Shown here: one piece after another, positions 4,362-21,218 of the stretch
Layout of the letters: every line of letters begins with the position of its first letter
How positions within the stretch are numbered: position 1 is the stretch's first letter
Translations under genes and position numbers: made by a program
The notes under the pieces: generated by a model
Seen by the model: only the letters and a program-made list of their open reading frames with translations
Told to the model about the DNA's origin: nothing
The model's database searches: none
From: an uncultured Candidatus Saccharibacteria bacterium
Lineage (GTDB): Bacteria; Patescibacteriota; Saccharimonadia; Saccharimonadales; UBA10212
Direction: 5' to 3'
DNA: 64,000 bases
NCBI GenBank assembly: GCA_965231085.1
Contig: OZ246413.1
Coordinates: 27,991 to 91,990 of the forward strand

Positions 4362-6119
4362 ATGGATGCGGTTACAGAGGTAAGAAGCAGGCTAAATATT
4401 GAGGACGTAATAGGTGAGTACGTCCAGTTAAAGCGTACCGGCCGTAACTTTAAAGGCTTAAGCCCGTGGACCAACGAAAAAACGGCCAGCTTTGTTGTTA
4501 GCCCAGAAAAGCAGATCTGGCACGACTTTTCTAGCGGCAAGGGCGGTGACGTTTTTAGCTTTGTTATGGAGGTTGAGGGCCTAGATTTTAAAGGTGCTCT
4601 CGAACAACTAGCTCGTAAGGCTGGGGTTGACCTGGAGCAGTTTAGAAAACCCGGCCAAAGTTCATCAGGAGCGAGCGCTAATCTAAAAAAACGAGCTCTA
4701 GAAGCCCTAGAACTAGCTGCTAAGTTCTACCAAAAACAGCTAACCGTTAATAAGTCAGCCCTTGAATATCTTATAAACAAACGCAAACTAGAAAAGCAAA
4801 CAATACTTACCTGGCAGCTTGGCTATTCACCTAATAAGGGTGATGCCCTAGCCGAGTTCTTGACTAAAAAGGGCTTTACGACAGACGAGATGAAGCGAGC
4901 TGGGTTGGTTGTCCCGTGGAGCGGCGGCTTTCGAGATATGTTCCGTGGCCGGATTATGATCCCGCTATGTGACGCCTCGGGCCAAGTTGTTGGCTTTACG
5001 GCAAGACTATTGGCCGACGAACCTAACGCGCCAAAGTATATTAATACTCCACAGACCATTGTTTATGATAAAAGCCGCCAAGTGTTTGGACTACATCTTG
5101 CCAAAGAAGCGATTAGAAAAAGTACAGTCGTTGTCGTGGTGGAGGGCAACATGGACGTAATAGCCAGCTGGCAGGCCGGTATTAAAAATGTCGTAGCCAG
5201 CGCTGGCACAGCCATGACCGAACAGCACCTAAGAATTCTTAAACGCTTTACTAGCGATATCCGTCTTAGTTTTGATGCCGACAGAGCCGGGCTCGCGGCT
5301 ACGGAGCGCATAATCCCACTAGCCCAAAAAATAGAACTGAACCTAAAAATTATTACTATTAATGACGCCAAGGACCCCGATGAGCTGATCCAAAAAGATC
5401 CAAAGGCATGGCAAAAAGCCATCGATTCAGCTGTTTACGCACCCGACTGGCTGATTGAGCAGTATAAAAGCCAACTCGATTTATCAACTGCGGCTGGCAA
5501 GAGAGCTTTTAGCGACGTAATAATCGCTGTGCTTAGGAGGCTGCAGGACCAAGTCGAACAAGAACACTATTTAAAGAAAATAGCCGAATTAACAGATACG
5601 ACATTCGATGCCATGAAGGCGAAGTTTACTAACCAGCCCAGCGTTAGCGCGGTTTTACGTAAACCAAAAGTTCAGCAAGCCGATATAGACCAGAATCAAG
5701 TTGAATATCAACGGCTGCAAGACCACTTTTTATCGATGATGCTGATGCAGCCAAAGGCACGCAAATTGTTAGAGGGCTGCAAGGAGGAATTCTTTACAGA
5801 TGGCCCAACTAGGGACCTACTAAAATTCCTCAAAGATAACCCCAAATTTGATGGTTCGGCAGGGCAGGCTAACAGATTGCAGTCCATAGGGGATTATGTT
5901 AAAATTATAACGTTACAGTTTGAGGAATTATATTCGGCGCTTAGCCTTAGCGATCTAGAAGATCAGGCCGCCCAACTCAAACGCCGGTTGATAGACCGAT
6001 ACGTTAAAATCGAAAACCGCAAACTAGCAGAAGAAATGAAGTCCGCAAAAACAGAAAGTGAGATCAAAAGCCTGGCTCGTAGGGCTGATGATCTTAATAA
6101 GCTACAAATTTATAAATAA
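4362..6119 (+). CDS. dnaG: DNA primase DnaG (zinc-ribbon ligands degenerate)
   Basis: 585 aa. N-terminal NEKTASF primase motif and a TOPRIM region VVVEGNMDVI..DADRAG. Located directly upstream of rpoD, as in the classical operon. Confidence 0.93.
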   Translation: MDAVTEVRSRLNIEDVIGEYVQLKRTGRNFKGLSPWTNEKTASFVVSPEKQIWHDFSSGKGGDVFSFVMEVEGLDFKGALEQLARKAGVDLEQFRKPGQSSSGASANLKKRALEALELAAKFYQKQLTVNKSALEYLINKRKLEKQTILTWQLGYSPNKGDALAEFLTKKGFTTDEMKRAGLVVPWSGGFRDMFRGRIMIPLCDASGQVVGFTARLLADEPNAPKYINTPQTIVYDKSRQVFGLHLAKEAIRKSTVVVVVEGNMDVIASWQAGIKNVVASAGTAMTEQHLRILKRFTSDIRLSFDADRAGLAATERIIPLAQKIELNLKIITINDAKDPDELIQKDPKAWQKAIDSAVYAPDWLIEQYKSQLDLSTAAGKRAFSDVIIAVLRRLQDQVEQEHYLKKIAELTDTTFDAMKAKFTNQPSVSAVLRKPKVQQADIDQNQVEYQRLQDHFLSMMLMQPKARKLLEGCKEEFFTDGPTRDLLKFLKDNPKFDGSAGQANRLQSIGDYVKIITLQFEELYSALSLSDLEDQAAQLKRRLIDRYVKIENRKLAEEMKSAKTESEIKSLARRADDLNKLQIYK

Positions 6120-6158
6120 TCCGGCGTGGGAACAATCCGGCCGCCAGCGAAAGGTAAT

Positions 6159-7391
6159 ATGCCAAAGAAATCACTTAAAAAAGTTGAAATTAAGAAGCCT
6201 GCCAAGACACCGGTTAAATCGGTAAAAGAACCAAAGGCAGCTAAGACGTCAAAGGTTGAAAAAGACCAAAAAGCAGCTAAGGGAGCAAAGCGGACTACTA
6301 AAACTTTTGATAAGGAAATCACCCAGCTAATCGAGCAAGGTCGCAAAGATGGCAAGCTTGACCAGCGTGATATTTATTCGGCGATTCCTGATGTGCCAGC
6401 AAATATCGATGTTCTAGATAGGGTTTATGCTGAGCTAACTGAGAATGATATCGAGCTTGTGCCACTAGCCGAACCAAGCGTTGTTGAATTATCTGACGAA
6501 TGGGCGGCCGAAGACGAGGAAGAAGAAATTATCATCGAGGATAACTCTTATATTGACGATATCGCCGACGACTCCGTACGGCTTTACCTTAGAGAGATTG
6601 GTAAAATCCCCCTATTAACAGCCGAAGAAGAACTAGCTCTAGCCAAAAAAGTTGTATCGGGCGATAAGCGAGCCAAGGATGCTATGGCCGAGGCTAACAT
6701 GCGCCTTGTGGTGTCGATTGCTAAGCGCTACGTCGGCCGCGGCTTAGACTTACTAGACCTAATCCAAGAAGGCAACACTGGTTTGCTACGAGCAGTAGAA
6801 AAATTTGATCCGGATCGTGGATTTAAGTTTAGTACTTATGCCACTTGGTGGATCCGCCAGGCCATTACCCGTGCGATTGCCGACCAAGCCCGCACAATCC
6901 GTATCCCGGTACACATGGTTGAAACCATCAACAAACTACTTAGAACGCAGCGCCGCTTAACCCAAGAGTTAAATCGTGAACCAACCAATGATGAAATCGC
7001 AGCCGCCATGGAAATGGATGTCGATAAGGTAGAGCATATCATGAAAATCAAGCAGGATATTTCTAGTCTTGATGCCTCAGTTCGAGACGACGAAGAAGAT
7101 TCTGTACTAGGTGATTTTATCGAAGACGAAGACCAAAAAACTCCAAGCGAGTCTGCATCCGAACAGCTCTTAAAGGAGCAAGTTAAGCAAATACTGGGGA
7201 CTCTAACCGAGCGTGAACAAAAAATTCTGAAACTGCGCTTTGGTCTAGAAGATGGTAAAAGTCACACCCTGGAAGAAGTCGGCCAAGAATTTAGCGTTAC
7301 TCGCGAACGTATAAGGCAAATCGAAGCTAAGGCTCTAGCCAAGCTGCGTAAGAATAAAGAGACCAAGAGACTCCACGAATATCTACAGTAA
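6159..7391 (+). CDS. rpoD: Primary RNA polymerase sigma-70 factor with Lys-rich N-terminal tail
   Basis: [54 protein letters not shown] plus region 4.2 [27 protein letters not shown] at 6159 follows GAAAGG; the track start at 6126 is GTG. Confidence 0.93.
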
Positions 7392-8380
7392 TGGAAGCAT
7401 CATCAGTCACACATCACGAGATTGATGGGGGGCCAGTTTTTGATGATGCCGAACTGTTAGATTTTGACGGAGATGAGCTAGAATTAGCCGCTGCTGATAT
7501 TTCAGCCGAGGACGATGATTTAGAGGACCTTGATCTAGAATTCGACGAAGATGATAGTGAGCTTGATGCCTTAACACTGTTTATTCGTGAGGTCAGAAAA
7601 CGTAAACTTCTAAATGCTGACCAAGAAGTTGCGCTAGCCAAAAGAATCGAGCGCGGAGACATGGCGGCTAAACACGAAATGATTGAGCGTAATTTAAGAC
7701 TAGTTATTTCGATTGCTAAAAATTACCGTAATCAAGGGGTGCCATTCTTAGATCTAATTCAAGAGGGTTCTATTGGTCTGAATCGTGCAGTCGAAAAGTT
7801 CGATTGGCGCAGGGGATATAAGTTTAGCACCTATGCCACCTGGTGGATTAGGCAAGCTGTTCAGAGAGCGGTTGTATACAAGAAAGTGGAAGGTTTAGCT
7901 TTGCCTCTCCACGTTGTTGAAAGAATTTATAAAATCAATACTTTTAAGGGTAGATTCGAATCAGAAAAAGGTCGCGAACCAACCCTGCAAGAAATAATTG
8001 ACGCTACCAAAATGCACCTACGTCATGTCAAGGAAGCACTCGATGCTGCAGCAATAAAAGATATGACTTCACTCCAAGCCGAAATTGGTGATGGCGACGG
8101 TGACCTATTAGATATAGTATCTGACCAAAAAGAATCGTCGGTTGAAGACCAGGTAATAGAAGAGTTGCAGGAGAGTGCAGTACTTGCTCTACTTGATAGG
8201 CTGTCGCCAGTCGACAGAAGATTAGTAGCTGGCTTTTATGGCTTAGATGGGCAGCGCAGGTCATATGCTGAACTAGCCCTAGAGTTGGGGCTTAGTCGTG
8301 AAAAGGCGCGGCTAAATTGCAACAGAGCCATAGAAAGGCTCGGTATGCTTGCTGCTGCCGAGGGCCTGGAGGATATATAA
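7391..8380 (+). CDS. Sigma-70 family paralog 2 (acidic N-terminus, diverged regions 3.0 and 4.2)
   Basis: [41 protein letters not shown]. Its start overlaps the rpoD stop (TAATG). Confidence 0.85.
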
Positions 8381-8381
8381 A

Positions 8382-9593
8382 ATGACTCAGGAAGGGCTAA
8401 GGTTTGGCGACCTGGACCAAGCAGAAGCAGAACTGCCGGTGGCAGTGAGCGATGAGCTTGACGACGGGGGTGATCTAAAAGATACCTTTTTACTATATGT
8501 AGATCAGGCTGGCAAAACGCCCCTACTAACCGCTTTTGAAGAGTACAGTCTAACTCGCAGAGCCCAAGCTGGCGATCTCGATGCTAAAAGGCGAATAATT
8601 GAAGCCAATCTGAGGCTGGTGCTTAGCATTGTTCGCCCATACCGCAACCAAACGCGCGTACCACTTTTGGATTTAGTGCAAGAGGGCAACATTGGATTAA
8701 TGCGTGCTGTAGAAAAATTTGACCCAGCTCGTGAAACCAAATTTAGCACCTATGCCACTTGGTGGATTTGGCAAGCGGTTAATAAGGCCCTCGAAGAAAA
8801 AGGCCCAGGCATAAGGGTGCCTCATCACATGGCCGAGAGGTTAAAAATTCTCCGGAAGGCCCAGGCAAATCTTGAGAGCGAATATGGGCGTGAAGCAACA
8901 GAGGAGGAGCTGTTAGCTAGAACTGGGTTTACCAGGCAGATTATGGCCAAGGTCATTAAGGCCAGTGTTGTGCATGCTGATCCTGATTCTTTTGATAGAG
9001 TTGTTGACACGCAAGATGGCGAGGGCAGCACCTTGGGTGAGATAACTCCGGACGACGTAGATGGCCCTGAGGAGTTAGTGCTCGATTTAATTACAAAATC
9101 TGAGCTTATGGCGATAATCAGCAGTCTAGATAAAAGAAAGGCCGAAGTCGTAATTGAACTTTTTGGTCTGGAAGATGGTGTTCCAAAGACCTTAGACGCC
9201 GTTGGGCAAATGCTTGGTATTACAAGGGAAAGGGTAAGACAAATTCGTGTACAAGCTCTTAAAGAAATCAAAATAGCCTATGAGTCGGTGAAAGTCCCTG
9301 CCAGCAAGCCACAGCGGCAACCTATCCCAGAAGCTACACCAGAAATTCGACAACCTATTGATAACACAAGCCTAGTCAGCAGGCTAACCACATTTATTAG
9401 ATTTAACCCCGATAGCCTCAATTCGCTGAACTTTATTGAAGCTTCGTTGGTTAGAGAATGTTTAGGTCTTTATGGAAGTGGTGAACCCCTAACTTTAAGC
9501 CAGATAGCCCAGAGGCGCAGTATCCAGGTTGAGGACGTAGAAAGTTACTTGGCAGTGGTGCTGCAAAAACTTGAGAGAGTAGCAGCAGCCTAG
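8382..9593 (+). CDS. Sigma-70 family paralog 3 with about 110-aa C-terminal extension containing a second region-4-like HTH
   Basis: [37 protein letters not shown] and region 4.2 LDAVGQMLGITRERVRQIRVQAL. ATG at 8382 lies 1 nt after the upstream stop; the track start at 8349 is TTG. Confidence 0.85.
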   Translation: MTQEGLRFGDLDQAEAELPVAVSDELDDGGDLKDTFLLYVDQAGKTPLLTAFEEYSLTRRAQAGDLDAKRRIIEANLRLVLSIVRPYRNQTRVPLLDLVQEGNIGLMRAVEKFDPARETKFSTYATWWIWQAVNKALEEKGPGIRVPHHMAERLKILRKAQANLESEYGREATEEELLARTGFTRQIMAKVIKASVVHADPDSFDRVVDTQDGEGSTLGEITPDDVDGPEELVLDLITKSELMAIISSLDKRKAEVVIELFGLEDGVPKTLDAVGQMLGITRERVRQIRVQALKEIKIAYESVKVPASKPQRQPIPEATPEIRQPIDNTSLVSRLTTFIRFNPDSLNSLNFIEASLVRECLGLYGSGEPLTLSQIAQRRSIQVEDVESYLAVVLQKLERVAAA

Positions 9594-9616
9594 CAAGTTA
9601 CGCTAGACTAAGATTG

Positions 9617-10183
9617 ATGAGAATAATAGGCATAGCCGGTACCAATGGGGCAGGTAAAGACACAGTTGGCCAGATACTGGCCGAAGACTATAAATGGATG
9701 TTTGTGTCTGGCTCAGACATTTTAAGAAAAGAGCTTGAACGTCGAGGTTTAGAGATCGAAAGAAGTAATCTCCGTGCGTTAAGTGGAGAATGGCGAAGAA
9801 CCCACGGACTTGGCGTACTAATTGATATGACAGTTGATATCTATAATAGATCCACTGGGCAATATCAGGGATTGGCTATATCAAGTATTCGCAATCCAGG
9901 GGAGGCAGCCAGAGTCCATGAACTTGGTGGAAAAATAATCTGGGTGGATGCAGACCCCAAAATTAGGTACCAAAGAATTTATTCACGAGGTCGTAGTGCC
10001 GAAGATAACAAAACTTTTGAACAATTTTTGTCAGAAGAGCGGGCTGAGATGTCGCATTCTGGCGACGAAACCACCCTAAACATGGCTGGCGTAAAAGCCA
10101 AAGCCGATATTTTTATAGAAAACAACGGCAACAAACTCGACGAATTTAAAAGAGTAATTGCCAGGAAGCTCTCTTTACAATAA
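9617..10183 (+). CDS. P-loop nucleotide/nucleoside kinase family protein
   Basis: Walker A IGIAGTNGAGKDT. About 188 aa, the size and layout of small NMP/dephospho-CoA-kinase-like proteins. Confidence 0.6.
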   Translation: MRIIGIAGTNGAGKDTVGQILAEDYKWMFVSGSDILRKELERRGLEIERSNLRALSGEWRRTHGLGVLIDMTVDIYNRSTGQYQGLAISSIRNPGEAARVHELGGKIIWVDADPKIRYQRIYSRGRSAEDNKTFEQFLSEERAEMSHSGDETTLNMAGVKAKADIFIENNGNKLDEFKRVIARKLSLQ

Positions 10184-10202
10184 ATAAATAATCTGGTATA
10201 AT
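10174..10202 (+). promoter_or_regulatory. Near-consensus sigma-70 promoter TTTACA-17 nt-TATAAT with extended -10 (TGg)
   Basis: TTTACA at 10174..10179; TGGTATAAT at 10194..10202. It overlaps the stop of the kinase gene and lies 60 nt upstream of the GC-rich ORF. Confidence 0.55.
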
Positions 10203-10261
10203 ATCCCCAACTGGAGTTTACACCCAGACGCACCTACGTTTTGAGAGAGGAGAGAAGACGA

Positions 10262-11170
10262 ATGCTGCCCGGAAGCAGCTGGACAACGTGGCGGAACGCC
10301 TACGACCTCATCGGTCATGTGCGCGAGCTCGCCATGGTCAGCGGCATCCTGCTGACGCAGGACCCGACGATCGAGCAGATCGACATGCTCTTCGGCGAGT
10401 GGGGGACTGAGAAGGTCTTCGGCAAGAACGTGCCGAAGGTCATGCAGTCCTGGCGCCTCGGCGACGACGGACTTCCCACCGAGGACATCCAGACCACCCT
10501 GGAGCTGTGCACCAACACGCACGGCGGCCAGGGCGTTCGAACCGTCGACGCGCTGCACTACGTGCAGTGGTTGCCGGAGGTCGACGTCATCGTCACCGGT
10601 GGTGTCGCCAACTGGATGGAGCGGCGGGTCAACGAGCTGCGCAGGCAGTCCGAGCCCCGTCTCGGCCGCTACGGTCTGCGGACCGGCGCGGTCTACATGC
10701 TCGTCAGCGACCGTGTCTGCAACACGGACACGGAGATGAGCAACCGCTACGTGCAGGCCTACCACAAGATGCACAAGCGGTACCCGACGGAACGCGAGCT
10801 CCTGCAGTACCTGCTTTGGACGCGCTGTCGGATCAAGCCGACCGGCGTCTTCGTGGCGAAGAGCCTCGAGGAGCAGGTGCGCCTCTTCGCAGCCAAGATG
10901 AAGCGGCGCTCCAAGAGGGAGTACTACGTGCCGACCAACCTCAACGCCGAGTTCGTGCCGCTGCTCGTGCGGCGCGTGCTCTGCGAGGTCTGGGGTCGGG
11001 AGTTCGACACCTGGAGCGGCCGCCGGTTCTGGTTCAGCTACTCGGCGTTCCCGATCGCGAGCACGCCCGAGCAGCTCGCCGACTCGGCGAACTACCAGAA
11101 TCCGTTCACCATCCCCAGCGGCCTCGCCCGCCTGATCAAGGAGATCTACCTCCTCCACCAGGAGGCCTGA
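10262..11170 (+). CDS. Hypothetical protein on a GC3-rich foreign insert (no recognisable family, no signal peptide)
   Basis: 26 of the first 30 codons end in G/C, versus 12 of 30 for polA. SD GAGAGGAGAG precedes the ATG at 10262. The amino-acid composition of this frame is protein-like, while overlapping ORFs 10175..11158(-) and 10507..11235(+) are Ala/Arg/Pro-rich shadows. Confidence 0.7.
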   Translation: MLPGSSWTTWRNAYDLIGHVRELAMVSGILLTQDPTIEQIDMLFGEWGTEKVFGKNVPKVMQSWRLGDDGLPTEDIQTTLELCTNTHGGQGVRTVDALHYVQWLPEVDVIVTGGVANWMERRVNELRRQSEPRLGRYGLRTGAVYMLVSDRVCNTDTEMSNRYVQAYHKMHKRYPTERELLQYLLWTRCRIKPTGVFVAKSLEEQVRLFAAKMKRRSKREYYVPTNLNAEFVPLLVRRVLCEVWGREFDTWSGRRFWFSYSAFPIASTPEQLADSANYQNPFTIPSGLARLIKEIYLLHQEA

Positions 11171-11195: not shown

Positions 11196-11231
11196 GAGCC
11201 CCCGTCACCGGACGGGGGCTCTTTCCTTTTT
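11196..11231 (+). terminator. Rho-independent terminator
   Basis: GAGCCCCCGT-CACCGG-ACGGGGGCTC followed by TTTCCTTTTT. Confidence 0.8.
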
Positions 11232-11257: not shown

Positions 11258-13888
11258 ATGAGTGAGCGGCGTAAACGACTAGCAATAATAGACGGTAAGA
11301 GTGTTTTTTACCGCGGCTACTATGCTATGCCAAATCTTAGCACTAACGACGGTGTGCCAACTGGCGGTGTTTATGGCTTTGCGGCCATGAGTCTAGAACT
11401 TATTAAAAAACTAAAACCAGATTATGTGGCAGTAGCGTGGGATAAGCCCAAAACTAACATTCGAGCTCGCCTAAAAATCTACCCAGAGTACAAAGCCGGG
11501 CGCAAAACTCCACCACCAGACTTTTATACGCAAATTCCAATCTTGCACGATCTACTAGACGCTTTTGGCTGGCCACTATTAGAGCTAGACGATTACGAAG
11601 CCGACGATATTATGGGCGCCTTAGCTACTGAGGCACGCAAAAAAGACATCGAAACCATGCTAATTACTTCTGATTTAGATGCGCTGCAGCTAGTAAACGG
11701 ACATGTTAAGGTTTATGCGCTTAAAAAAGGATTCAGCAATATTGAGGAGTTTCATCCAGAAAGTTTTGAAGCCAAGTACGGCATAAAGGTTGAGCAGTAT
11801 CTGGACCTTAAGAGCCTAAAAGGCGATAGCTCCGATAACATCCCAGGTGTACCCGGTATTGGTGAAAAAACAGCCATAGAGCTGCTGCAAAAATATGGTG
11901 ACATGGATGGCATATATAAGCATTTACCAGATATAAAAGAGACAGTTCGTAAAAAGCTCGAGGCTGGCCGAGAGAGCGCCGAGATGAGCAAGAAACTGGC
12001 CCGCATCTGGGTGGAGGCGCCGGTAAAGCTGGATCTTGAAGCCATGGATGTAAACAAATTAGACCCAGATAATCTTCGCACGTTGCTGCAAAAGCTGGAA
12101 TTTAGGAGCTTGCTTAGAAACTTACCAGAAAATATGCGTAGTGATGCTTCTCCTAGCGAAGACATCGTTAATGCAAATATAACTATTGGTAAAAATACTG
12201 TAATTTCTAGTAGCAAGGATTTACCCAAACTTGGTGATTCGGACTACTTCTATATTCATTCACGCTCGGCAGACAAGCATGGGGCTAAGCCGGAAGTGTT
12301 GATTATTAGCTTAGATGGCAAAGACACCTATACGCTAGACTTGCGCAAACTAGATACAGCACTTATTGCCAAGCAGTTTACTAATGTTATGCCACTTGTC
12401 GGCTACGACATAAAAGGCACCATGAAGATGCTTCGCCAAATGGGAGTCAAGGTCCTACCAAAGGTTGGTCACGATGTTTTAGTTGGGGCATTTCTGCTCA
12501 ACCCTCTAGTTAGAGCCCAGTCCCTTACCGAGCTAGCCATTAGCCAACTCAAATACAACGGTTCAAGCCTAGAAGACCTAGACCCCGACGAGCTTATTAC
12601 CAAAGCTCCAGAAGTTATGGCCGTGATTCGTGAGCTGTTCCATGGGCAAGTAAGGGCTCTTGAGCAGGCACCAAGCCTAGAAAAAGTAGCGGCCGAAATT
12701 GACTGGCCAATAATACCGGTCCTCGCCGACATGGAGCTAGCTGGTATTAAGCTAGACCCTGGATATTTAAAAAATTTCTCAAAGCAGATAGATGGCACAA
12801 TCTCAGATCTTGAACAAAACATTTATGGCCACGCTGACCAGGAGTTTAACATCAGCTCGCCCTTGCAGCTGGCCGACATACTTTTTGTAAAACTTAACTT
12901 GCCTAAAGAGGGGATTAAGAAGGGTAAAACTGGCTACAGCACGGCAGCCAGTGAGCTAGAAAAGCTCAAAGGCCTACACCCGATTATCGAACTTATTAGC
13001 CAGTACCGCGAAGTCACCAAATTAAAGAACACATATGTTGATACTCTGCCAAAACTAGTGGACGAAAACAGTAGGGTGCATACAACTTTTAACCTCACTA
13101 TTGCTCAAACCGGTAGATTATCTAGTACTGACCCAAATTTGCAAAATATCCCAGTTAAGACCGATCTTGGCAAAAAAATTCGCACAGCCTTTATAGCAGA
13201 AAAGGGCCATAGTTTTGTTAGCGCAGACTACTCACAGTTTGAGCTACGTATTGCCGCCGCATTATCGGACGACAAAAGCATGATAAAGGCCTTTAATGAT
13301 GACCAAGACATTCATGTAAAAACCGCAGCCGAGATTTATGGAATTAAGCCCGAGGAAGTTACAAAAGCTCAGCGCTCATCCGTAAAAGCCGTTAACTTTG
13401 GTATTTTGTACGGCCTTGGCCCGCATGCCTTAAGCCAAAGCACAGGCATGACCTTTGGTGAAGCACGCGAGTTTATAGCGAAATATTTTGAGATTCGCCC
13501 CGAGCTAAAAGCCTTAATCGAATCAGAGCGCAAAAAAGCCGAAAAGCAGGGCTACGTAGAAACTATGCTTGGCCGGCGTCGCCCAACGCCAGATGTGCAT
13601 TCATCAAACTTTGCGGTACGTGAGGCCGCGTATAGAGCAGCCGTGAATATGCCGTTCCAAGGTACCGCGGCAGACATTATGAAACTTGCCATGATAGCCG
13701 TAGCTAAAAAACTTCCAGAGGGCGCACAAATGCTATTGCAAATCCACGACAGTATTTTAATTGAGTGCAAGGATGGGCAGGTGAGCGAAGTCAGCAAACT
13801 TCTAAAAGAAACTATGGAGAGTATTTATAAACTACCCGTGCATTTAAAGGCGGATATTAGTACTGGCAAAAATTGGGGTGAACTGTAA
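11258..13888 (+). CDS. polA: DNA polymerase I
   Basis: 876 aa. 5'-nuclease N-terminus (DGKSVFYRGYYA), polymerase motifs DYSQFELRI and QIHDSILIE. Confidence 0.95.
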   Translation: MSERRKRLAIIDGKSVFYRGYYAMPNLSTNDGVPTGGVYGFAAMSLELIKKLKPDYVAVAWDKPKTNIRARLKIYPEYKAGRKTPPPDFYTQIPILHDLLDAFGWPLLELDDYEADDIMGALATEARKKDIETMLITSDLDALQLVNGHVKVYALKKGFSNIEEFHPESFEAKYGIKVEQYLDLKSLKGDSSDNIPGVPGIGEKTAIELLQKYGDMDGIYKHLPDIKETVRKKLEAGRESAEMSKKLARIWVEAPVKLDLEAMDVNKLDPDNLRTLLQKLEFRSLLRNLPENMRSDASPSEDIVNANITIGKNTVISSSKDLPKLGDSDYFYIHSRSADKHGAKPEVLIISLDGKDTYTLDLRKLDTALIAKQFTNVMPLVGYDIKGTMKMLRQMGVKVLPKVGHDVLVGAFLLNPLVRAQSLTELAISQLKYNGSSLEDLDPDELITKAPEVMAVIRELFHGQVRALEQAPSLEKVAAEIDWPIIPVLADMELAGIKLDPGYLKNFSKQIDGTISDLEQNIYGHADQEFNISSPLQLADILFVKLNLPKEGIKKGKTGYSTAASELEKLKGLHPIIELISQYREVTKLKNTYVDTLPKLVDENSRVHTTFNLTIAQTGRLSSTDPNLQNIPVKTDLGKKIRTAFIAEKGHSFVSADYSQFELRIAAALSDDKSMIKAFNDDQDIHVKTAAEIYGIKPEEVTKAQRSSVKAVNFGILYGLGPHALSQSTGMTFGEAREFIAKYFEIRPELKALIESERKKAEKQGYVETMLGRRRPTPDVHSSNFAVREAAYRAAVNMPFQGTAADIMKLAMIAVAKKLPEGAQMLLQIHDSILIECKDGQVSEVSKLLKETMESIYKLPVHLKADISTGKNWGEL

Positions 13889-14745
13889 TGGACTTGAGCA
13901 GTGAGATTTTTGACTTGGAGATCGTTGATTGGCAAGGGGCCAAGGCAGTTAAAAAAACCGCTAAGCCAGATGCACCACAGGCAAGGATAGATCGTCTGCA
14001 AAATGATGTCTATGGCATGCAGTTTTTTGACCAGCTTGCTGGCAAGCATCCCGCAATTGAACTTTATATTCCAGAGGTGTTTGAAACTAGCGAAAAAAGT
14101 TATACACGAGAATACATTCCAGGCCAGCCGCTGATAAATGAACAAATGGATTTATCAGAAGCAGCACCCAAACTTGATAAACTAGCCCAGGTTTTAGCAG
14201 AAGTAGATAAAATTGAACCCTACGGCGACATAAAGTTTGTAGGTTCAAGCGATTACCGCAATATACTAAGTAGCGTTAACAAATGGTCATCTCAACAGAT
14301 ACATGAGGGCGTTAATACTAAGGAACGGGTTGATGCAGCGATACAAAAAATAGTAGAGCTTAGTAAGTATTTGCGGCCAAGAATTGCTCATGGCGACATG
14401 TCGCCGCACAAACATGTCTATTTAAAAGACGGTAAAATTGCTCTGATAGATTTTGAAAATTTCACACCAAATGCCGCCCGCTATTACGACGCGGCCTGGG
14501 CCTATGCGCGGCTTTATGCGGTTGCTAAAACTCCAGATATTGCTAAGTATTTTTTAAAAAGTTTTATAGAAAAATCTGTGGAAACAGAACATAAAGAAGA
14601 ACAATTACTAGCCGTATTAACACAGCGCATTCTGGGCTTGCAGTACGATGCTTCGGTAGATTACCGCAAAGGTTTGGAGTACCGCACTCGAGCCGTAAAA
14701 CTAATGGACATTTGCCTAGAAGGCAATTTAGATCTACTTTACTGA
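13888..14745 (+). CDS. Aminoglycoside/choline-kinase-like phosphotransferase (APH fold)
   Basis: IAHGDMSPHKHVYL..IALIDFEN resembles the HGDxxxxN / DFE kinase motifs. The start overlaps the polA stop. Confidence 0.55.
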   Translation: MDLSSEIFDLEIVDWQGAKAVKKTAKPDAPQARIDRLQNDVYGMQFFDQLAGKHPAIELYIPEVFETSEKSYTREYIPGQPLINEQMDLSEAAPKLDKLAQVLAEVDKIEPYGDIKFVGSSDYRNILSSVNKWSSQQIHEGVNTKERVDAAIQKIVELSKYLRPRIAHGDMSPHKHVYLKDGKIALIDFENFTPNAARYYDAAWAYARLYAVAKTPDIAKYFLKSFIEKSVETEHKEEQLLAVLTQRILGLQYDASVDYRKGLEYRTRAVKLMDICLEGNLDLLY

Positions 14746-15825
14746 AACTACGCCGGCGTCAGCGTCAACGCTAATTAGCTGGCCGTTTTCTAGAATCTCT
14801 GTAGCGTTACTACAACCCACAATGCAGGGCACTTTAAGCTCACGGGCGACAATTGCGGCGTGAGACAATATGCCGCCCTGGTCAGTCACAATGGCGGCAG
14901 CCTTTTTCATTAAGGGTACGAAGGCTGGGGTTGTAACCTTGCACACTAATATTGAGCCTTTGGGAAAAGGTTTATTGATATCCTGGGCATCAACAATGCA
15001 TACTTTGCCCTTGGCCTTACCCATACAGCCAGTCTGGCCGCTCACTAAACCACTGCTAGCGGTAGTTCTAAACACAGTATCTTCGTACATTTTGCCTAAA
15101 CTCTGGGAATAGTCGATAAACCAAGTTCCGGCGTCTGAATCCGTTGATTCAAAATAGCCTTCCAGATAATCATTGCTAAAAGTTGAGCCTAATTCAGATA
15201 GCAGTTTTTTTTGGATAGTTTTGTTTGGCACGTGTAGGTAGGCGGCAAGTTTTTTAACGTGCTCTAGGGCTTTGTCGTTCTTTGGTAGCATCTTCCAGGT
15301 CTTATAGTCGTAGCGAAAAACGTGTGGCGTGGCTGTTTCATGAAAGCCTTGCGTTAATTGGTGGTGCCCCCCAGAAATTATTTCGCCCTGAATGCCATGT
15401 TTATTAACTACAAAAATAGCGCCCCAGTGGTTGTGCTCCGAGTGGGGAACAAAGTCAGCCTTGTATTTGCCGGCATCAATGTTTTGTTCTAGAAACCATT
15501 TATAGGCCTCTGCAACAGATTTGCCCCGCATTCTTAACTTGGGCAGCCCTTCTTCTTTTGGCATGAGCCTAAGAGCGCAAAGTTCAGAGCCCGATTCTTC
15601 TAAATATTTTTTTAAAGCCGGGGTTTTATTTGCCAAATCTAGGCCGTCAAACTGAACTGGTCTATCAAAAGGGAGGCTTATTAACTCATTTAGAACTTTT
15701 AGGCGCTCACGTTTGTCGTTATCTTCGCGGCGAATTAGAGCTGCATCTTTGTGTTTGATATCCTCTAGCCATTCCGTTAGTGACTTTTGGGTGTGCCAAA
15801 TTGCGGCTAGCTTGTGATCTGACAT
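14734..15825 (-). CDS. PEP-utilising enzyme, unknown middle domain plus C-terminal phosphohistidine swivel domain
   Basis: C-terminus TDQGGILSHAAIVARELKVPCIVG is the PEP-utilisers mobile-domain signature. Confidence 0.75.
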   Translation of the reverse strand: MSDHKLAAIWHTQKSLTEWLEDIKHKDAALIRREDNDKRERLKVLNELISLPFDRPVQFDGLDLANKTPALKKYLEESGSELCALRLMPKEEGLPKLRMRGKSVAEAYKWFLEQNIDAGKYKADFVPHSEHNHWGAIFVVNKHGIQGEIISGGHHQLTQGFHETATPHVFRYDYKTWKMLPKNDKALEHVKKLAAYLHVPNKTIQKKLLSELGSTFSNDYLEGYFESTDSDAGTWFIDYSQSLGKMYEDTVFRTTASSGLVSGQTGCMGKAKGKVCIVDAQDINKPFPKGSILVCKVTTPAFVPLMKKAAAIVTDQGGILSHAAIVARELKVPCIVGCSNATEILENGQLISVDADAGVVSVK

Positions 15826-16582: not shown

Positions 16583-17173
16583 ATGATTAAAGCTGTAATT
16601 TTCGATTGTTTTGGAGTCATCATTAGCGATGGTCTTAAGCAGTTTATGGAAGAACTGGATAAAACCAACCCAGAGGCTCGGCAAACAATAAATTATTACG
16701 TGCGGCTCGCAAATAGTGGGCAGATCCCAGAAAGTGAATACGGCAAGGCTGTGTCCGAAGCTCTTAATATTCCGATAGAAGAGTGGCGTTCAAAAATTAA
16801 ATCTGGCGAGCATAAGGACCCTAGAGTAATCGAATATATAAAATCAACTAGAAAGAATTATAAAACTGCTTTGCTTAGTAATTTAGCGAGTAAAGAAAGC
16901 ATGAACCGCCGGTTTAGCGAAGACGAACTTAAAGAACTATTCGACGTTATTGTTATATCTGGCGAGGTTGGAGTGCAAAAACCTAACCCAGAAATATATC
17001 AAGTTACGGTCGAAAGATTAGGCGTAGATCCAAATGAGTGCGTATTTATAGATGATATCGAGCGGTTTTGTACGGCTGCAAAAGAGGTTGGTATGCAGGC
17101 CATTTGGTATAAAGACTTCAACCAAGCTAAAGGCGAGCTGGAGACGCTTTTAGCTGCCGACTCTGATAACTAA
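16583..17173 (+). CDS. HAD-superfamily hydrolase, subfamily IA-like
   Basis: Motif I VIFDCFGVI (D-x-F, haloacid-dehalogenase-like variant), KPNPEIY, FIDDIE. Confidence 0.75.
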   Translation: MIKAVIFDCFGVIISDGLKQFMEELDKTNPEARQTINYYVRLANSGQIPESEYGKAVSEALNIPIEEWRSKIKSGEHKDPRVIEYIKSTRKNYKTALLSNLASKESMNRRFSEDELKELFDVIVISGEVGVQKPNPEIYQVTVERLGVDPNECVFIDDIERFCTAAKEVGMQAIWYKDFNQAKGELETLLAADSDN

Positions 17174-17389
17174 CTTATCTTTTAACCTGAACTTATCTTT
17201 TATTTTGCCCCGCTCAAACTGCAGAGTTGAGGCGAGCGATGAGCTCCGCACGCTGATAATTATTGCGCCTCGGTCAATCTTTATATTGCAGCGGCTATTA
17301 TATTTGCGGAAAATGTAATCTTTAATTAACTCCATCTCGTTTGGCGGGGTAAAATCTTTTTTGCCAAGAATATCTTGAAGGCTATCCAT
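17150..17389 (-). CDS. Small DUF721/DciA-like protein
   Basis: 79 aa. GAIIISVRSSSLASTLQFERGKIKDKF resembles the DUF721 pattern. The assignment is weak. Confidence 0.4.
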   Translation of the reverse strand: MDSLQDILGKKDFTPPNEMELIKDYIFRKYNSRCNIKIDRGAIIISVRSSSLASTLQFERGKIKDKFRLKDKLVIRVGS

Positions 17390-17432
17390 AACTACAACAA
17401 TCAGTATAACTCCTTACAGTTATAATTAGGAT

Positions 17433-18308
17433 ATGCCGGAGCTTCCAGAGGTAGAAACAATTCGAATTGGGCTAGCCAAGCTATTGCCCGATCTTGAAAT
17501 TAAAGATGTGTGGCACGACTGGCCAAAGTCTTTCCCGAACGCACCAGCTGATGTGGCTCGGTTTTTAATTGGGGCTAAAGTTACCAAGGTCCGTCGTCGT
17601 GCCAAGGTGTTGATTATTGAACTTTCAAGCGGTTGGTCCTTAGTAATACATCTAAAAATGACTGGCCAGCTTGTATATATAGGCGATAAACGTTTCGGAG
17701 CAGGGCATCCAAACAAAGACTTGGTAGAGAGTTTACCGGCTAAGGCTACACGCGTAGTCATAGATTTTACAGATGATTCTAAACTATATTTTAATGATCA
17801 ACGTAAATTTGGTTGGATGAGGCTACTGCCAACAATTGAGATTCCAGAGATTAATTTCTTTAAAACCGTTGGTCCCGAGCCTCTAGACGATAACTTCACG
17901 GCTGCCGCTTTTATAGATCGACTCATGAGGCGCAGTAAAAGTGGTATTAAGGCTGTTTTGCTGGACCAGACTGTAATTGCCGGTGTGGGCAATATTTACG
18001 CCGACGAGGCATTATGGGCGGCTAAAATACATCCTTTGAGCATTGTCTCGGACATTTCAAAAGCCAAATTGGTGTTGTTACACAACAAACTGCGGGAAAT
18101 CCTTAGCTTAAGTATTAAGTTGGGCGGCAGCACCGACAAAAACTATGTTGACGCCGAAGGAAAAAAAGGCAGTTACTTAAAGTTTGCTCAGGTGTTTAGG
18201 CGCGAGGGGTTGGCTTGCCCGCGCTGCGGCAACATTATAAAGAAAACTCGCGTCGCCGGCCGAGGTACTCACATATGCAAGGTATGTCAGAAGGTAAAAA
18301 TCAAATGA
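17433..18308 (+). CDS. mutM: Formamidopyrimidine-DNA glycosylase
   Basis: N-terminal MPELPEVE and C-terminal zinc finger CPRCGNIIKKTRVAGRGTHICKVCQ. Confidence 0.92.
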   Translation: MPELPEVETIRIGLAKLLPDLEIKDVWHDWPKSFPNAPADVARFLIGAKVTKVRRRAKVLIIELSSGWSLVIHLKMTGQLVYIGDKRFGAGHPNKDLVESLPAKATRVVIDFTDDSKLYFNDQRKFGWMRLLPTIEIPEINFFKTVGPEPLDDNFTAAAFIDRLMRRSKSGIKAVLLDQTVIAGVGNIYADEALWAAKIHPLSIVSDISKAKLVLLHNKLREILSLSIKLGGSTDKNYVDAEGKKGSYLKFAQVFRREGLACPRCGNIIKKTRVAGRGTHICKVCQKVKIK

Positions 18309-19219
18309 TAGTTACATTAACAGGCAGTAACCAGTATCAGATAAAGCAGAAACTCGACCTACTTATTGGTGAGTTCGTAAAACAGCACGGCGAATTGGCG
18401 CTAGAAAAGTTCGATGGGGAAGAGCTAGAGGTTAATCAGCTAGTAGATGCCGTTCAAAACTTGCCTTTCTTATCTACCAAGAAGATGGTGGTAGTTAGAA
18501 ACTTGAGCCTGAATAAGACTGGCGCAGAAACCATTGAGCAAATTATTAGTGCAGTTCACGAAGGCGTAGACTTAATATTTTATGAACCTCACATAGACAA
18601 ACGAACCGGGTATTATAAGGTATTAAAGTCTAAAACTGACTTCCTGGAAATGAGTGAGCTAGACAACAGCACTCTGGCTAAGTGGCTCGTGGAGGAAGCC
18701 AGTCAGACTGGGGCTAGATTGAGCCAAGCGGACGCTATTTACTTAATTGATAGGGTTGGTACCAATCAAGTGTTGCTAGCAAACGAGCTGACCAAGCTTA
18801 TCACTTACAGCCAAAAAATTACGCGCGAAAACATTAATTTATTGACTGAAAAAACACCCCAGAGTAAAGTTTTTGACCTAATGGACGCGGCTTTTGCAGG
18901 CAATCGGGTTAGGGCACTGGAACTTTATGATGAGCAAAGAGCTCAAAAAGTTGAACCACAGGAAATTATTGCTATGTTTGCGTGGCAGCTACGCCTTATA
19001 GCAGCCGCCAAGTATGCAGGCAATAAAAAACCCGCTGATATAGCCAAAGATTTTGGCATGAGCCCGTACCCAGTTACTAAAGCTTTCGGGTTAGCAAAAA
19101 AAACAAGCGAGGCTAAGCTTACTCAGATGGTTTCAGAGCTACTAAAAATCGATAGGCTAGGCAAGACTAGTCCTATCGATTTAGATGAAGCTCTAAAGAA
19201 TTATATAATCGGTCTTTAA
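18305..19219 (+). CDS. holA: DNA polymerase III delta subunit
   Basis: About 304 aa from ATG 18305 (ATGA overlap with the mutM stop). General HolA layout, with LLANELTKL and VFDLMDA regions. Confidence 0.75.
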   Translation: MIVTLTGSNQYQIKQKLDLLIGEFVKQHGELALEKFDGEELEVNQLVDAVQNLPFLSTKKMVVVRNLSLNKTGAETIEQIISAVHEGVDLIFYEPHIDKRTGYYKVLKSKTDFLEMSELDNSTLAKWLVEEASQTGARLSQADAIYLIDRVGTNQVLLANELTKLITYSQKITRENINLLTEKTPQSKVFDLMDAAFAGNRVRALELYDEQRAQKVEPQEIIAMFAWQLRLIAAAKYAGNKKPADIAKDFGMSPYPVTKAFGLAKKTSEAKLTQMVSELLKIDRLGKTSPIDLDEALKNYIIGL

Positions 19220-19603
19220 CTACTTCTTAGCGGCTGGTTTTTTCTTGGCAGCAGGCTTTTTGGCTACTACTTTTTTGGCTACCGGCTTAGTAGCTTTCTT
19301 GACTGGAGCGGCCTTTTTAGCCGGAGCTTTTGCAACCTTACCACCGGCTAATTTGGCCTTGGCAGCTAATTGAGCCTTTTGACGGGCAGCTTTGTTCTTA
19401 TGAATAACATTCTTTTTTACGGCTGTGTCGATGGCGCTAACAGCGTCACGCTGAGTTTTGGCAATCTCATCCGCTTTACCGCTAGCCAAGGCTTTAGTAA
19501 AGGCTTTGATAGATTCGCGAAGTGTACGCTTAGTTTTTGCATTGCGAAGATTAGCCTTAGCGGCTGTTTTTACTCGCTTCTTTGCTGATTTGATAATTGG
19601 CAC
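19220..19603 (-). CDS. rpsT: Ribosomal protein S20 with Lys/Ala-rich C-terminal extension
   Basis: PIIKSAKKRVKTAAKANLRNAKTKRTLR. GTG start 10 nt after AAGGAG. The tail is AKKAAPVKKATKPVAKKVVAKKPAAKKKPAAKK. Confidence 0.9.
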   Translation of the reverse strand: MPIIKSAKKRVKTAAKANLRNAKTKRTLRESIKAFTKALASGKADEIAKTQRDAVSAIDTAVKKNVIHKNKAARQKAQLAAKAKLAGGKVAKAPAKKAAPVKKATKPVAKKVVAKKPAAKKKPAAKK

Positions 19604-19748
19604 TAGTTATAACTCCTTAAATATTATTATCTAAAAACTAGATTAAAACTATACCTGTAAGGAGTTAGTTTGTCAAAGAATCTTCTTGCGGGGTATATAC
19701 GGTTATGCTAATCTGACAGATAGAAGTAACTAAAATAAAAACACAAAA

Positions 19749-21218
19749 ATGGACGCTGCAGCCAAACAACAGATAATTGACCGCGTTAAGCAGGCTAATA
19801 ACATATTGGTCACTGTTAGTGCTAACCCCTCTGTTGACCAGCTGGCTGCCTGTATTGGCCTAACACTACTGTTAAACAATATGGATAAGCACGCCACAGC
19901 AGTGTTCTCCGGCCAAGTTCCTTCGACTCTAGAGTTTTTGCAGCCAGAAAAAACAATCGAGACCAACACCGATAGTCTACGAGATTTCATAATTTCTCTG
20001 GATAAGAATAAGGCTGACAAACTGAAGTATAAAGTTGAAGATCAGGTTGTTCGAATCTACATAACTCCTTATAAAACTAGCCTTACCGAGAACGATTTAG
20101 TGTTCAGCCAGGGAGACTACAACGTGGAAGTTGTGATTGCTCTGGGTATTGCCGATAAGAACCACATCGATGCGGCTATTACAGCCCACGGCAAGATCCT
20201 ACACGATGCGACGGTCATAACTATGAACGCGGGGCAGGCCAAGGCTGAGCCACTAGGCCAGATAAACTGGCAAGAGCCCACGGCAAGCAGTTTGTGTGAA
20301 ATGATTGTTAGCCTTAGTGAGGCCTTTGGGAATAATTTGATTGATAACCAGATGGCAACGGCTTTTCTAACCGGTATAGTTGCCGAGACCAACCGGTTTA
20401 GTAATAACAAAACATCGCCTAAGGTAATGACCATGAGTGCTCAGCTGATGGCCGCTGGAGCTAACCAGCAACTTATTGTTAGTAAACTCGAACCACCGGC
20501 CAAGCCAGTCATAAAATATGTTCCAGGACAGGCGCCGGTTAAACCAGCATATAACGGCAAGCCGGAGGCAACACCGCAAGATGGAACCCTAAATGTTCAT
20601 AAATCAGGTAGTAAATCCACAGAAGTCGAGATTAAGCCGGAAGAAATACATATTGATGCTCAGGGTAATTTGAAAACTGCAGCCGATCTTTTGCAGCCAT
20701 TGCCCCCGTTAACGCCACCGGTAACTTCTCCTCCTGTGCCACCGGCTCAGGAGCCAGCCCCAGGCCCCAGCTACATGAGTGCCTCACCAGTTGGTAAGAC
20801 CGTTGTGCCACCAAAAACTGTAGCGCCAGAGCCAGATGTTGGCCCGCACGCGCTTCTTAGCCCTGATAAACAGTCTCAATATGATCAAGGAGCTTTTACA
20901 GCTAATACTCAGCCAGAGTGGGCCGATCCTAACCTAAACACTTCTTTTGATCCTATGAGTATGCCACCACCACCGCAGCAAACTCCACAATCTCCAGAAG
21001 CACATGTTGATTCTGCTAGAAACGCAGTCCAAAGCGCGCTTGCTGGCGCCCCACCACCTGTTCCGAACGCTGAAGTTTTTACGAAACCCGAGTCGATAAT
21101 ACAGAATTCGGAACCAGCCCCCGATATCAGTAAAGCAGCTGCACCACCGTTTCCACCACCGTTGGCTCCCGTTAGCGGGGCAGTGATCCCTGCTGATAGC
21201 TCGCAAAGCCGAGCTTAG
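19749..21218 (+). CDS. NrnA/DHH-DHHA1-like protein with degenerate catalytic motifs and about 230-aa Pro-rich tail
   Basis: The layout parallels NrnA, but HxxPDGD reads SANPSVD, DHH reads DKNH and GIxTDTGxF reads GIVAETNRF. The C-terminal half is low complexity and P-rich. Confidence 0.5.
   Translation: MDAAAKQQIIDRVKQANNILVTVSANPSVDQLAACIGLTLLLNNMDKHATAVFSGQVPSTLEFLQPEKTIETNTDSLRDFIISLDKNKADKLKYKVEDQVVRIYITPYKTSLTENDLVFSQGDYNVEVVIALGIADKNHIDAAITAHGKILHDATVITMNAGQAKAEPLGQINWQEPTASSLCEMIVSLSEAFGNNLIDNQMATAFLTGIVAETNRFSNNKTSPKVMTMSAQLMAAGANQQLIVSKLEPPAKPVIKYVPGQAPVKPAYNGKPEATPQDGTLNVHKSGSKSTEVEIKPEEIHIDAQGNLKTAADLLQPLPPLTPPVTSPPVPPAQEPAPGPSYMSASPVGKTVVPPKTVAPEPDVGPHALLSPDKQSQYDQGAFTANTQPEWADPNLNTSFDPMSMPPPPQQTPQSPEAHVDSARNAVQSALAGAPPPVPNAEVFTKPESIIQNSEPAPDISKAAAPPFPPPLAPVSGAVIPADSSQSRA

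Follow-up and report, generated by a model that had tools for sequence, protein, structure and literature searches.

In E. coli and Bacillus, the genes of DNA primase (dnaG) and of the housekeeping sigma factor (rpoD) form the macromolecular synthesis gene pair. Besides the housekeeping sigma, group-2 sigma factors are principal-like but non-essential, such as RpoS, the cyanobacterial SigB-E, HrdA/C/D of Streptomyces and SigB of Mycobacterium. We analyzed a stretch of 64,000 nucleotides (the window) from an uncultured Candidatus Saccharibacteria bacterium of the Saccharimonadales (contig OZ246413.1), in which dnaG and rpoD are followed by two more sigma-70 genes, called sig2 and sig3 here, and by a kinase gene. 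As in the pair of E. coli and Bacillus, dnaG is followed directly by the housekeeping sigma gene on the same strand; unlike that pair, the string contains one or two more sigma-70 genes and the kinase gene, and no rpsU was seen upstream. Like group-2 sigmas, sig2 and sig3 have regions 1.2 to 4 without region 1.1 and a region 2 close to that of primary sigmas, and their best matches are models and structures of RpoS, cyanobacterial RpoD and SigB. Unlike them, they score below every curated cut-off, stand in tandem with rpoD and evolve much faster than rpoD; what's more, one of them (sig2) appears to come from another phylum and the other (sig3) probably carries a second region-4-like domain. 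Another comparison is offered by ECF41 and ECF42, group-4 (extracytoplasmic function, ECF) sigmas with fused C-terminal SnoaL-like or tetratricopeptide repeat (TPR) type sensor domains (PMC3426412, PMC7826278). Sigmas found behind rpoD in this clade may also have an extra domain after region 4, suggesting on-board modulation of activity or specificity, but they are principal-like and the added module is itself a helix-turn-helix (HTH) of the sigma-4 or LuxR/GerE type.

The explanation that we favor, and regard as moderately probable from the sequence comparisons, is that sig2 and sig3 act as accessory principal-like sigmas whose reading of the upstream promoter side is altered, that they occupy a plastic slot behind rpoD, and that sig2 derives from Actinomycetota. 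The slot itself was observed directly in relatives. A scan with DnaG gave 80 species-representative loci with 54-71% DnaG identity (numbered with an L below), nearly all of which are labelled Saccharibacteria or Saccharimonadales. The pairing of dnaG and rpoD is kept in all 69 related loci containing rpoD, and the conserved order is dnaG, rpoD, any extra sigma genes, the kinase gene, a variable part and polA. In most related loci the kinase gene comes directly after rpoD or the extra sigma gene(s), often overlapping the preceding stop codon. Among the 64 loci with at least 1.5 kb of sequence past rpoD, 47 have no extra sigma gene between rpoD and the kinase gene, 15 have one and 2 have two. 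The extras are found mainly in closer relatives: at DnaG identities of at least 58% (23 loci), 8 loci have none, 13 have one and 2 have two (L002 and L020), while at identities below 58% (41 loci), 39 have none, 2 have one and no locus has two. The three closest relatives, with about 70% DnaG identity, contain two, one and zero extras, respectively. Since even the closest relatives differ in this number, the window is one state of a plastic slot and not a one-off expansion, which corrects a sequence-only reading of this DNA that had described an expanded dnaG-rpoD arrangement. Thus a lineage-specific and highly plastic accessory-sigma slot exists between rpoD and the kinase gene, with quick gain, loss and replacement of sigma genes; because many relatives do without any extra sigma, its function is probably dispensable. 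The same reading had named a finding that would speak against it, namely a single sigma gene in relatives together with inactivated copies. Its first half was found, as most distant relatives have rpoD only, but the extras are intact and carry no inactivating changes.

Extra sigma genes elsewhere in the flank were seen in five distant loci. For instance, L044 has no extra beside rpoD, and a tandem trio of very divergent sigma-70 genes lies about 4 kb downstream, just before polA (16761-20383). In the metagenome-assembled genome L017, rpoD is split into two overlapping open reading frames (ORFs) by a frameshift or a sequencing error (7540-8629), and a sigma of 593 aa with two extra sigma-4-like repeats is located after the kinase gene rather than before it (9222-11000).

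For the class assignment, we compared the three sigmas of the window with Pfam, NCBIfam and PDB. RpoD belongs to group 1, as all five Pfam domains exceed their cut-offs and the curated RpoD C-terminal model TIGR02393 is passed (367.3 bits, cut-off 354). It is the slow-evolving copy and is present in all related loci having sequence downstream of dnaG. Its N-terminal extension is rich in Lys; compared with the orthologs in L038 and L084, it has about 31 extra N-terminal residues (Lys/Ala/Pro-rich; window 6159-6300; 410 vs 379 aa). The domain content of sig2 and sig3 given above, in which Pfam finds regions 1.2, 2, 3 and 4, is that of group 2, where region 4 of sig2 scores 19.9 bits against a cut-off of 24.1 and is yet alignable over its full length. 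No curated NCBIfam family model is passed by sig2 or sig3; their best models are RpoS, cyanobacterial RpoD, SigA and SigB at 200-230 bits, and the nearest PDB chains are SigA, RpoS, SigB and RpoD. Membership in RpoS was rejected with scores of 217.5 bits (sig2) and 231.9 bits (sig3) against a cut-off of 378.7 for TIGR02394/NF004207. Groups 3 and 4 (RpoH, FliA, SigB/F/G, sporulation and ECF sigmas) were also rejected, with 93-115 bits compared with 200-230 for groups 1 and 2, and with regions 1.2 and 3 present. In the recognition regions, the equivalents of Q437, W433/W434 and Y430 are kept in both proteins; the region 4.2 helix of sig3 is canonical, and the 4.2 helix and the 2.4/3.0 junction of sig2 have diverged. 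Judged by these matches, sig2 and sig3 are most likely intact accessory principal-like (group-2-like) sigma factors, and the earlier view that all three sigmas are group-1/2-like, and neither ECF nor sporulation sigmas, holds.

The changed residues are not evenly distributed. We used 65 columns whose conservation among 55 reference group-1/2 sigmas is 95% or more, with E. coli numbering inferred from alignment with sigma-70. The DLIQEG core-binding motif and the equivalents of Y430, W433, W434, Q437, H455 and E458 are kept in both sig2 and sig3. The changes include the equivalents of R451A, R586K, Q589L and E591C in sig2, and of G424E, R436W, R441K and E591R in sig3; on the alignment, regions 2.3/2.4 of sig3 also show Y425T and T440N equivalents. 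For all slot sigmas, the ultra-conserved columns are violated in 28.5% of cases in the region 4.2 helix vs 9.6% in region 2 (Fisher p = 3e-11), and the TRERxRQ helix is rewritten in about half of them. This pattern fits proteins that would retain core binding and opening of -10-like elements, with change on the -35 or upstream side. The suggestion that the sigmas differ in -35 preference agrees with this concentration of change in the -35-reading helix.

Slot sigmas diverge much more than rpoD. On 255 aligned core columns, the rpoD orthologs of the 69 related loci are 86-99% identical, while comparisons of slot sigmas with one another, with any rpoD, and with sig2 or sig3 give 25-60% identity. 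Among 5.8 billion proteins, the best relative other than the protein itself reaches at most 54% identity for sig2 and at most 47% for sig3. A slot sigma with close orthologs is found in L038, L084 and L086. Between L038 and L084, the ratio of nonsynonymous to synonymous substitution rates (dN/dS, Nei-Gojobori) is 0.019 for rpoD, 0.050 for dnaG, 0.075 for the kinase gene and 0.157 for the slot sigma, whose dN is about nine times that of rpoD. The slot sigma of this sister pair is thus under purifying selection. Hence slot sigmas are probably constrained, under weaker or shifting constraint, and the protein-level rate of slot occupants is about five to nine times that of rpoD.

Such fast evolution could also mean that sig2 and/or sig3 are decaying remnants under relaxed selection, heading for loss and no longer working as sigma factors. 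The very high divergence without close orthologs, the many relatives with an empty slot, the weak region 4 of sig2 with its lost R451 and Q589 equivalents, and the G424E and R436W changes of sig3 would all suit this explanation. However, the frames are fully open over 329 (sig2) and 403 (sig3) codons and key residues are kept in spite of about 50-60% amino-acid divergence, which is an indirect argument for constraint on these two genes. In both proteins, Pfam regions 1.2, 2 and 3 reach significance and the residues for melting and for the -10 element are retained along with the core-binding motif; the slot sigma of the sister pair has a dN/dS of 0.16, and the start contexts are kept, including GGAGG before sig3. 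Decay is unlikely, and working accessory sigmas are more probable.

The origin of sig2 could be traced further. Besides the diverged 4.2 helix (SREKARLNC) and the changed 2.4/3.0 junction with loss of the R451 equivalent, it has an acidic N-terminus (aa 1-58). Its nearest proteins that carry a name belong to Gaiellaceae, Thermoleophilia or "Actinobacteria", and Thermoleophilia-like sigmas reach 51-54% identity, compared with 40% to its own rpoD. Two of the nearest proteins are encoded on contigs whose GC content is 71% and which have a Usp-sigma-Lon arrangement as well as MurT/GatD and DapD genes. In the MAFFT alignment (286 columns), sig2 averages 48% identity to the actino-type group (maximum 52%), vs 37.5% to rpoD of Saccharimonadales and 36% to RpoD of other Patescibacteria. 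The motifs GLNRA, FDWRRGY and QRA and a further one of 10 residues are common to sig2 and the actino-type sigmas, and sig2 has none of the rpoD-type states at these positions. Of the 17 columns by which the reference groups can be told apart, 11 show the actino-type (A) state in sig2 and none shows the Patescibacteria-type (B) state. In 99.5% of 200 neighbor-joining bootstraps, sig2 and the actino-type sigmas are split from the Patescibacteria and primary sigmas.

The slot gene of L038 and L084 resembles Actinomycetota sigmas even more. It is 71-78% identical to Gaiellaceae/Thermoleophilia sigmas and about 44-47% to its own rpoD, has 15-16 actino-type states at the 17 columns, and forms the sister group of the Gaiellaceae clade with 99% bootstrap support. 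While sig2 also has the signature motifs of these sigmas, it differs from them in its identity of only about 43-52%, its native low GC content and the changes in its 2.4/3.0 junction and 4.2 helix. Like sig2, most of the other actino-type slot genes are closer to a different and shorter Actinomycetota sigma group than to the Gaiellaceae group. As two sigma groups stand behind the slot genes, more than one acquisition is likely. The GC content and the GC content at third codon positions (GC3) of the actino-type slot genes match the recipient genomes (0.44-0.50), whereas the donor-like contig has about 0.71. The transfers therefore did not happen recently. On the combined identities, signatures and trees, sig2 is a xenolog of a Thermoleophilia-like Actinomycetota sigma; it was horizontally acquired and has since taken on the base composition of the genome around it. 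Natural competence and dependence on Actinomycetota hosts are both described for cultured Saccharibacteria (PMC12173739), and together they would make a plausible route of transfer.

The Actinomycetota-like contig L082 (GC 0.71), which contains the nearest relative of sig2, holds three sigma-70 genes within 9 kb (6809-7705, 12682-14253 and 14994-15705), one of them preceded directly by a universal stress protein gene and followed by Lon.

These results bear on a second alternative, in which sig2 and sig3 would be tandem duplicates of the resident rpoD that were formed in place and have since diverged. The sequence-only reading had pointed this way by calling them paralogs. Their position directly downstream of rpoD, on the same strand and tightly coupled, would be natural for duplicates, and the slot genes of some relatives are clearly of the rpoD or Patescibacteria type, such as L024a (1 A-type and 11 B-type states) and L036 (1 and 10). 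In addition, sig3 has FDP and the length variant of FGLEDG in common with rpoD and Patescibacteria RpoD, and 62% of bootstraps place it with the Patescibacteria (30% with the actino side). For sig2, however, the 48% identity to actino-type sigmas vs 37-40% to its own rpoD and Patescibacteria RpoD, the 11 vs 0 signature states and the bootstrap support contradict duplication, as does the L038-type slot gene beside the Gaiellaceae sigmas; sig2 is better described as an Actinomycetota-type xenolog. The signature of sig3 is mixed (6 A-type and 4 B-type states), and its origin is placed neither by hidden Markov model scores, whose reference sets are biased by selection, nor by the signature columns or the bootstraps. 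Taken together, duplication of both genes is quite unlikely on these alignments and is possible for sig3.

Several slot genes, among them those of L028 (9468-10598), L018, L027 and L012, have interleaved runs of A and B states at the 17 columns, for example ABBBAA.AA.AAABBAB. Such mosaic genes suggest either recombination between neighboring sigma genes or convergence. In the window, recent gene conversion among rpoD, sig2 and sig3 was rejected: only a stretch of about 100 nt in region 2 aligns (72-80% identity), and no conversion tracts were found between the three genes. Their core identities are 40% (rpoD/sig2), 42% (rpoD/sig3) and 37% (sig2/sig3).

The sig3 protein has a C-terminal tail of 105 aa, which had not been mentioned in the sequence-only reading. 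The sigma core (aa 15-298), whose canonical 4.2 helix reads TRERVRQI, is followed by a Pro/Gln-rich linker (aa ~299-327) and by a region-4-like domain of about 76 residues (aa 328-403). Among 1.84 billion representatives, a search for relatives of the tail returned only sig3 itself, and three TPR proteins that matched it were discarded as spurious helical matches. Against Pfam Sigma70_r4 the tail scores 15 bits (E 0.018), which does not reach the cut-off of 24.1, and BLASTP of the tail against region 4 of sig3 itself gave no alignment. The AlphaFold2 model of aa 320-403 is helical, with a mean confidence (predicted local distance difference test, pLDDT) of 85 and a predicted template modelling score of 0.71; the single-sequence model of full-length sig3 is of low confidence except for the tail (pLDDT 49). 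The best 50 PDB matches of the tail model are all region 4 of sigma-A, including complexes of SigA region 4 with WhiB. Their probabilities are 0.98-1.00, with E-values of just 0.03-0.16, and 4g6d_A superimposes with a root-mean-square deviation of 1.8 A over 55 columns. From the predicted structure, sig3 most likely carries a second sigma-4-like module.

Added C-terminal domains also occur in other slot sigmas. The long sigma of L017 has its two further sigma-4-like repeats in the tail. A GerE/LuxR HTH after region 4 (Pfam cut-off 23.5 bits) is present in L015 (40.4 bits) and L020b (38.0 bits), L003 stays just under the cut-off with 21.6 bits, and L009 and L002b have HTH-like tails. The Pfam GerE domain was not found in sig2 or sig3. 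Degeneracy of the 4.2 helix and possession of a C-terminal HTH tail were not significantly associated (5 of 7 vs 6 of 18, Fisher p = 0.18).

The genes of the window form one co-directional string (Table 1). The arrangement, coordinates and junctions that had been read from this DNA are exact when checked with the ORF list and the raw sequence, and the peptides quoted for it are all present (44 residues, together with the acidic N-terminus of sig2 and the Lys-rich one of rpoD). The start codon of rpoD has AAAGG upstream. The ATG of sig2 uses the A of the rpoD TAA stop codon, so that one base is in common, and no Shine-Dalgarno motif was read upstream of it. One nucleotide lies between the TAA of sig2 and the ATG of sig3, and the kinase gene starts 23 bases beyond sig3 with no terminator-like site between them. 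A promoter scan of the string found no consensus-promoter enrichment and no internal terminator, and is uninformative on co-transcription. No sigma genes other than these three occur in the window. An assembly artefact can be dismissed, since identical proteins are encoded on a 669-kb NCBI contig as well as on independent Logan contigs; native GC content and coupled junctions with native genes likewise rule out an error of assembly or binning. The organism also occurs in sequencing run SRR13076588.

Table 1. Genes and sequence features of the dnaG-sigma-kinase string (positions in the window)
Feature	Position	Strand	Basis or remark
dnaG (DNA primase, 585 aa)	4362..6119	+	First gene of the string; Pfam Zn_ribbon_DnaG/DNAG_N/Toprim/DnaB_bind; TIGR01391 395 bits vs cut-off 283.6
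rpoD/sigA (housekeeping group-1 sigma, 410 aa)	6159..7391	+	Pfam regions 1.1, 1.2, 2, 3, 4; TIGR02393
TAATG stop/start overlap of rpoD and sig2	7389..7393	+	Direct sequence reading
sig2 (probable accessory principal-like sigma, 329 aa)	7391..8380	+	Pfam regions 1.2, 2, 3; region 4 weak
GGAGG (Shine-Dalgarno-like; within the last part of sig2, 9 nt upstream of the sig3 start)	8368..8372	+	Direct sequence reading
sig3 (probable accessory principal-like sigma, 403 aa)	8382..9593	+	Pfam regions 1.2, 2, 3, 4
Putative second region-4-like helical domain, sig3 aa 328-403	9363..9590	+	Weak Pfam match; AlphaFold2 model; PDB matches
AAA_18 nucleotide-kinase-like gene (188 aa)	9617..10183	+	Conserved downstream boundary of the sigma slot; Pfam AAA_18/AAA_17

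From these features, a working scheme can be proposed. The five genes from dnaG to the kinase gene would be co-transcribed, and sig2 would be translationally coupled to rpoD through the stop/start overlap. The tight or overlapping junctions suggest joint production with RpoD, and hence competition of the three sigmas for the core enzyme, in which sig2 and sig3 would form alternative holoenzymes with the cell's own core RNA polymerase. Because the core-binding and -10/melting determinants of region 2 are kept, both proteins are expected to bind this core and to open -10-like elements. With the equivalents of R451 and Q589 lost, sig2 may read the spacer or -35 side differently or weakly. The sig3 protein would read a canonical -35 element, and its tethered second sigma-4-like module might touch an extra upstream site or a protein partner.

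Several points weigh against the favored explanation. The slot is empty in 47 of the 64 relatives, region 4 of sig2 stays under the Pfam threshold, and ultra-conserved columns are broken at 10 of 65 in sig2 and at 8 of 65 in sig3. The dN/dS of 0.157 comes from a different slot gene in two relatives, and sig2 and sig3 are without close relatives. Taxon names are attached to only a few of the nearest actino-type proteins. The trees are neighbor-joining only, on about 260-290 columns, with very long branches and a poorly supported backbone in which sig3 is unplaced. In the tail of sig3, the putative recognition helix is acidic (VEDVESY, vs TRERIRQ in sigma-4) and the net charge of the domain is -1, therefore contact with a protein is at least as likely as DNA binding.

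Phage-encoded sigma factors redirect the RNA polymerase of the host, and in a third alternative the slot sigmas would be host-type proteins delivered into an Actinomycetota host, where they redirect or titrate its RNA polymerase. The Actinomycetota type of some slot genes, the dependence of cultured relatives on such hosts, and the fast evolution and copy-number turnover, which resemble those of host-interaction genes, would agree with it. However, neither a signal peptide nor a known secretion tag is present, the genes lie inside a housekeeping dnaG-rpoD string and are coupled to rpoD, their composition is fully adjusted to the local genome, and no precedent was found in the literature searched. 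We therefore consider delivery into the host very improbable, and give the same low standing to the broader idea that Saccharimonadales repeatedly capture sigmas of their Actinomycetota hosts into the slot for use at the host interface, either to deliver a sigma or sigma-4 decoy or to read host-type promoters on acquired DNA. If it were true, an arms race with the host would explain why the slot evolves and turns over so fast. It is extremely improbable that the extra sigmas are an MzaA-like anti-phage defence or decoy or derive from a prophage, as the PADLOC and NCBIfam MzaA models match sig2 and sig3 only in the generic C-terminal sigma part (PADLOC 108-116 bits; NCBIfam 182-194 bits vs a cut-off of 800), and the neighbors are dnaG, rpoD, the kinase gene and polA with no flanking defence, phage or MZA partner genes.

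Two GC-rich ORFs were seen elsewhere in the window. The first (10241-11170, + strand; 309 aa), located between the kinase gene and polA, has no family match and a GC3 of 0.92, vs 0.37-0.46 in its neighbors. It is flanked by a promoter-like site (10174-10202) and a terminator-like site (11196-11221). Syntenic homologs with 31-40% identity in L024, L004 and L025 have a GC3 of 0.74-0.82, the distant L056 has 0.43 and L084 is without the gene; a metagenome scan for this ORF gave no match. As high GC3 is kept across such divergent orthologs, a single recent transfer is no explanation. The second ORF (52199-53140, + strand) lies in an island of about 1 kb with about 65% GC and encodes a Cys-rich protein of 313 aa with a signal peptide, a GC3 of 0.78 and no family match; neither the retrieved loci nor the metagenome scan yielded a relative.

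In conclusion, accessory principal-like sigmas are already known, and dnaG with rpoD is a classical pair. The novelty seems to lie in three features together: a fixed slot with fast turnover behind rpoD in a clade of reduced-genome episymbionts, occupants derived from Actinomycetota, and fusions of principal-like sigmas with HTH domains of the sigma-4 or LuxR type. Full-text literature searches brought up no account of these features, nor of sigma paralogs in Saccharibacteria or Patescibacteria. Patescibacteria have tiny genomes with few recognizable regulators, and their control of transcription is largely unknown. Two region-4-like modules in one sigma would make for an unusual architecture of promoter recognition. 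If the slot proteins are active, they would open the promoter classes and condition-specific programmes of an episymbiont to testing. The locus suggests that one clade diversifies its transcription through a fast-turnover slot of principal-like sigmas, some of them from Actinomycetota.

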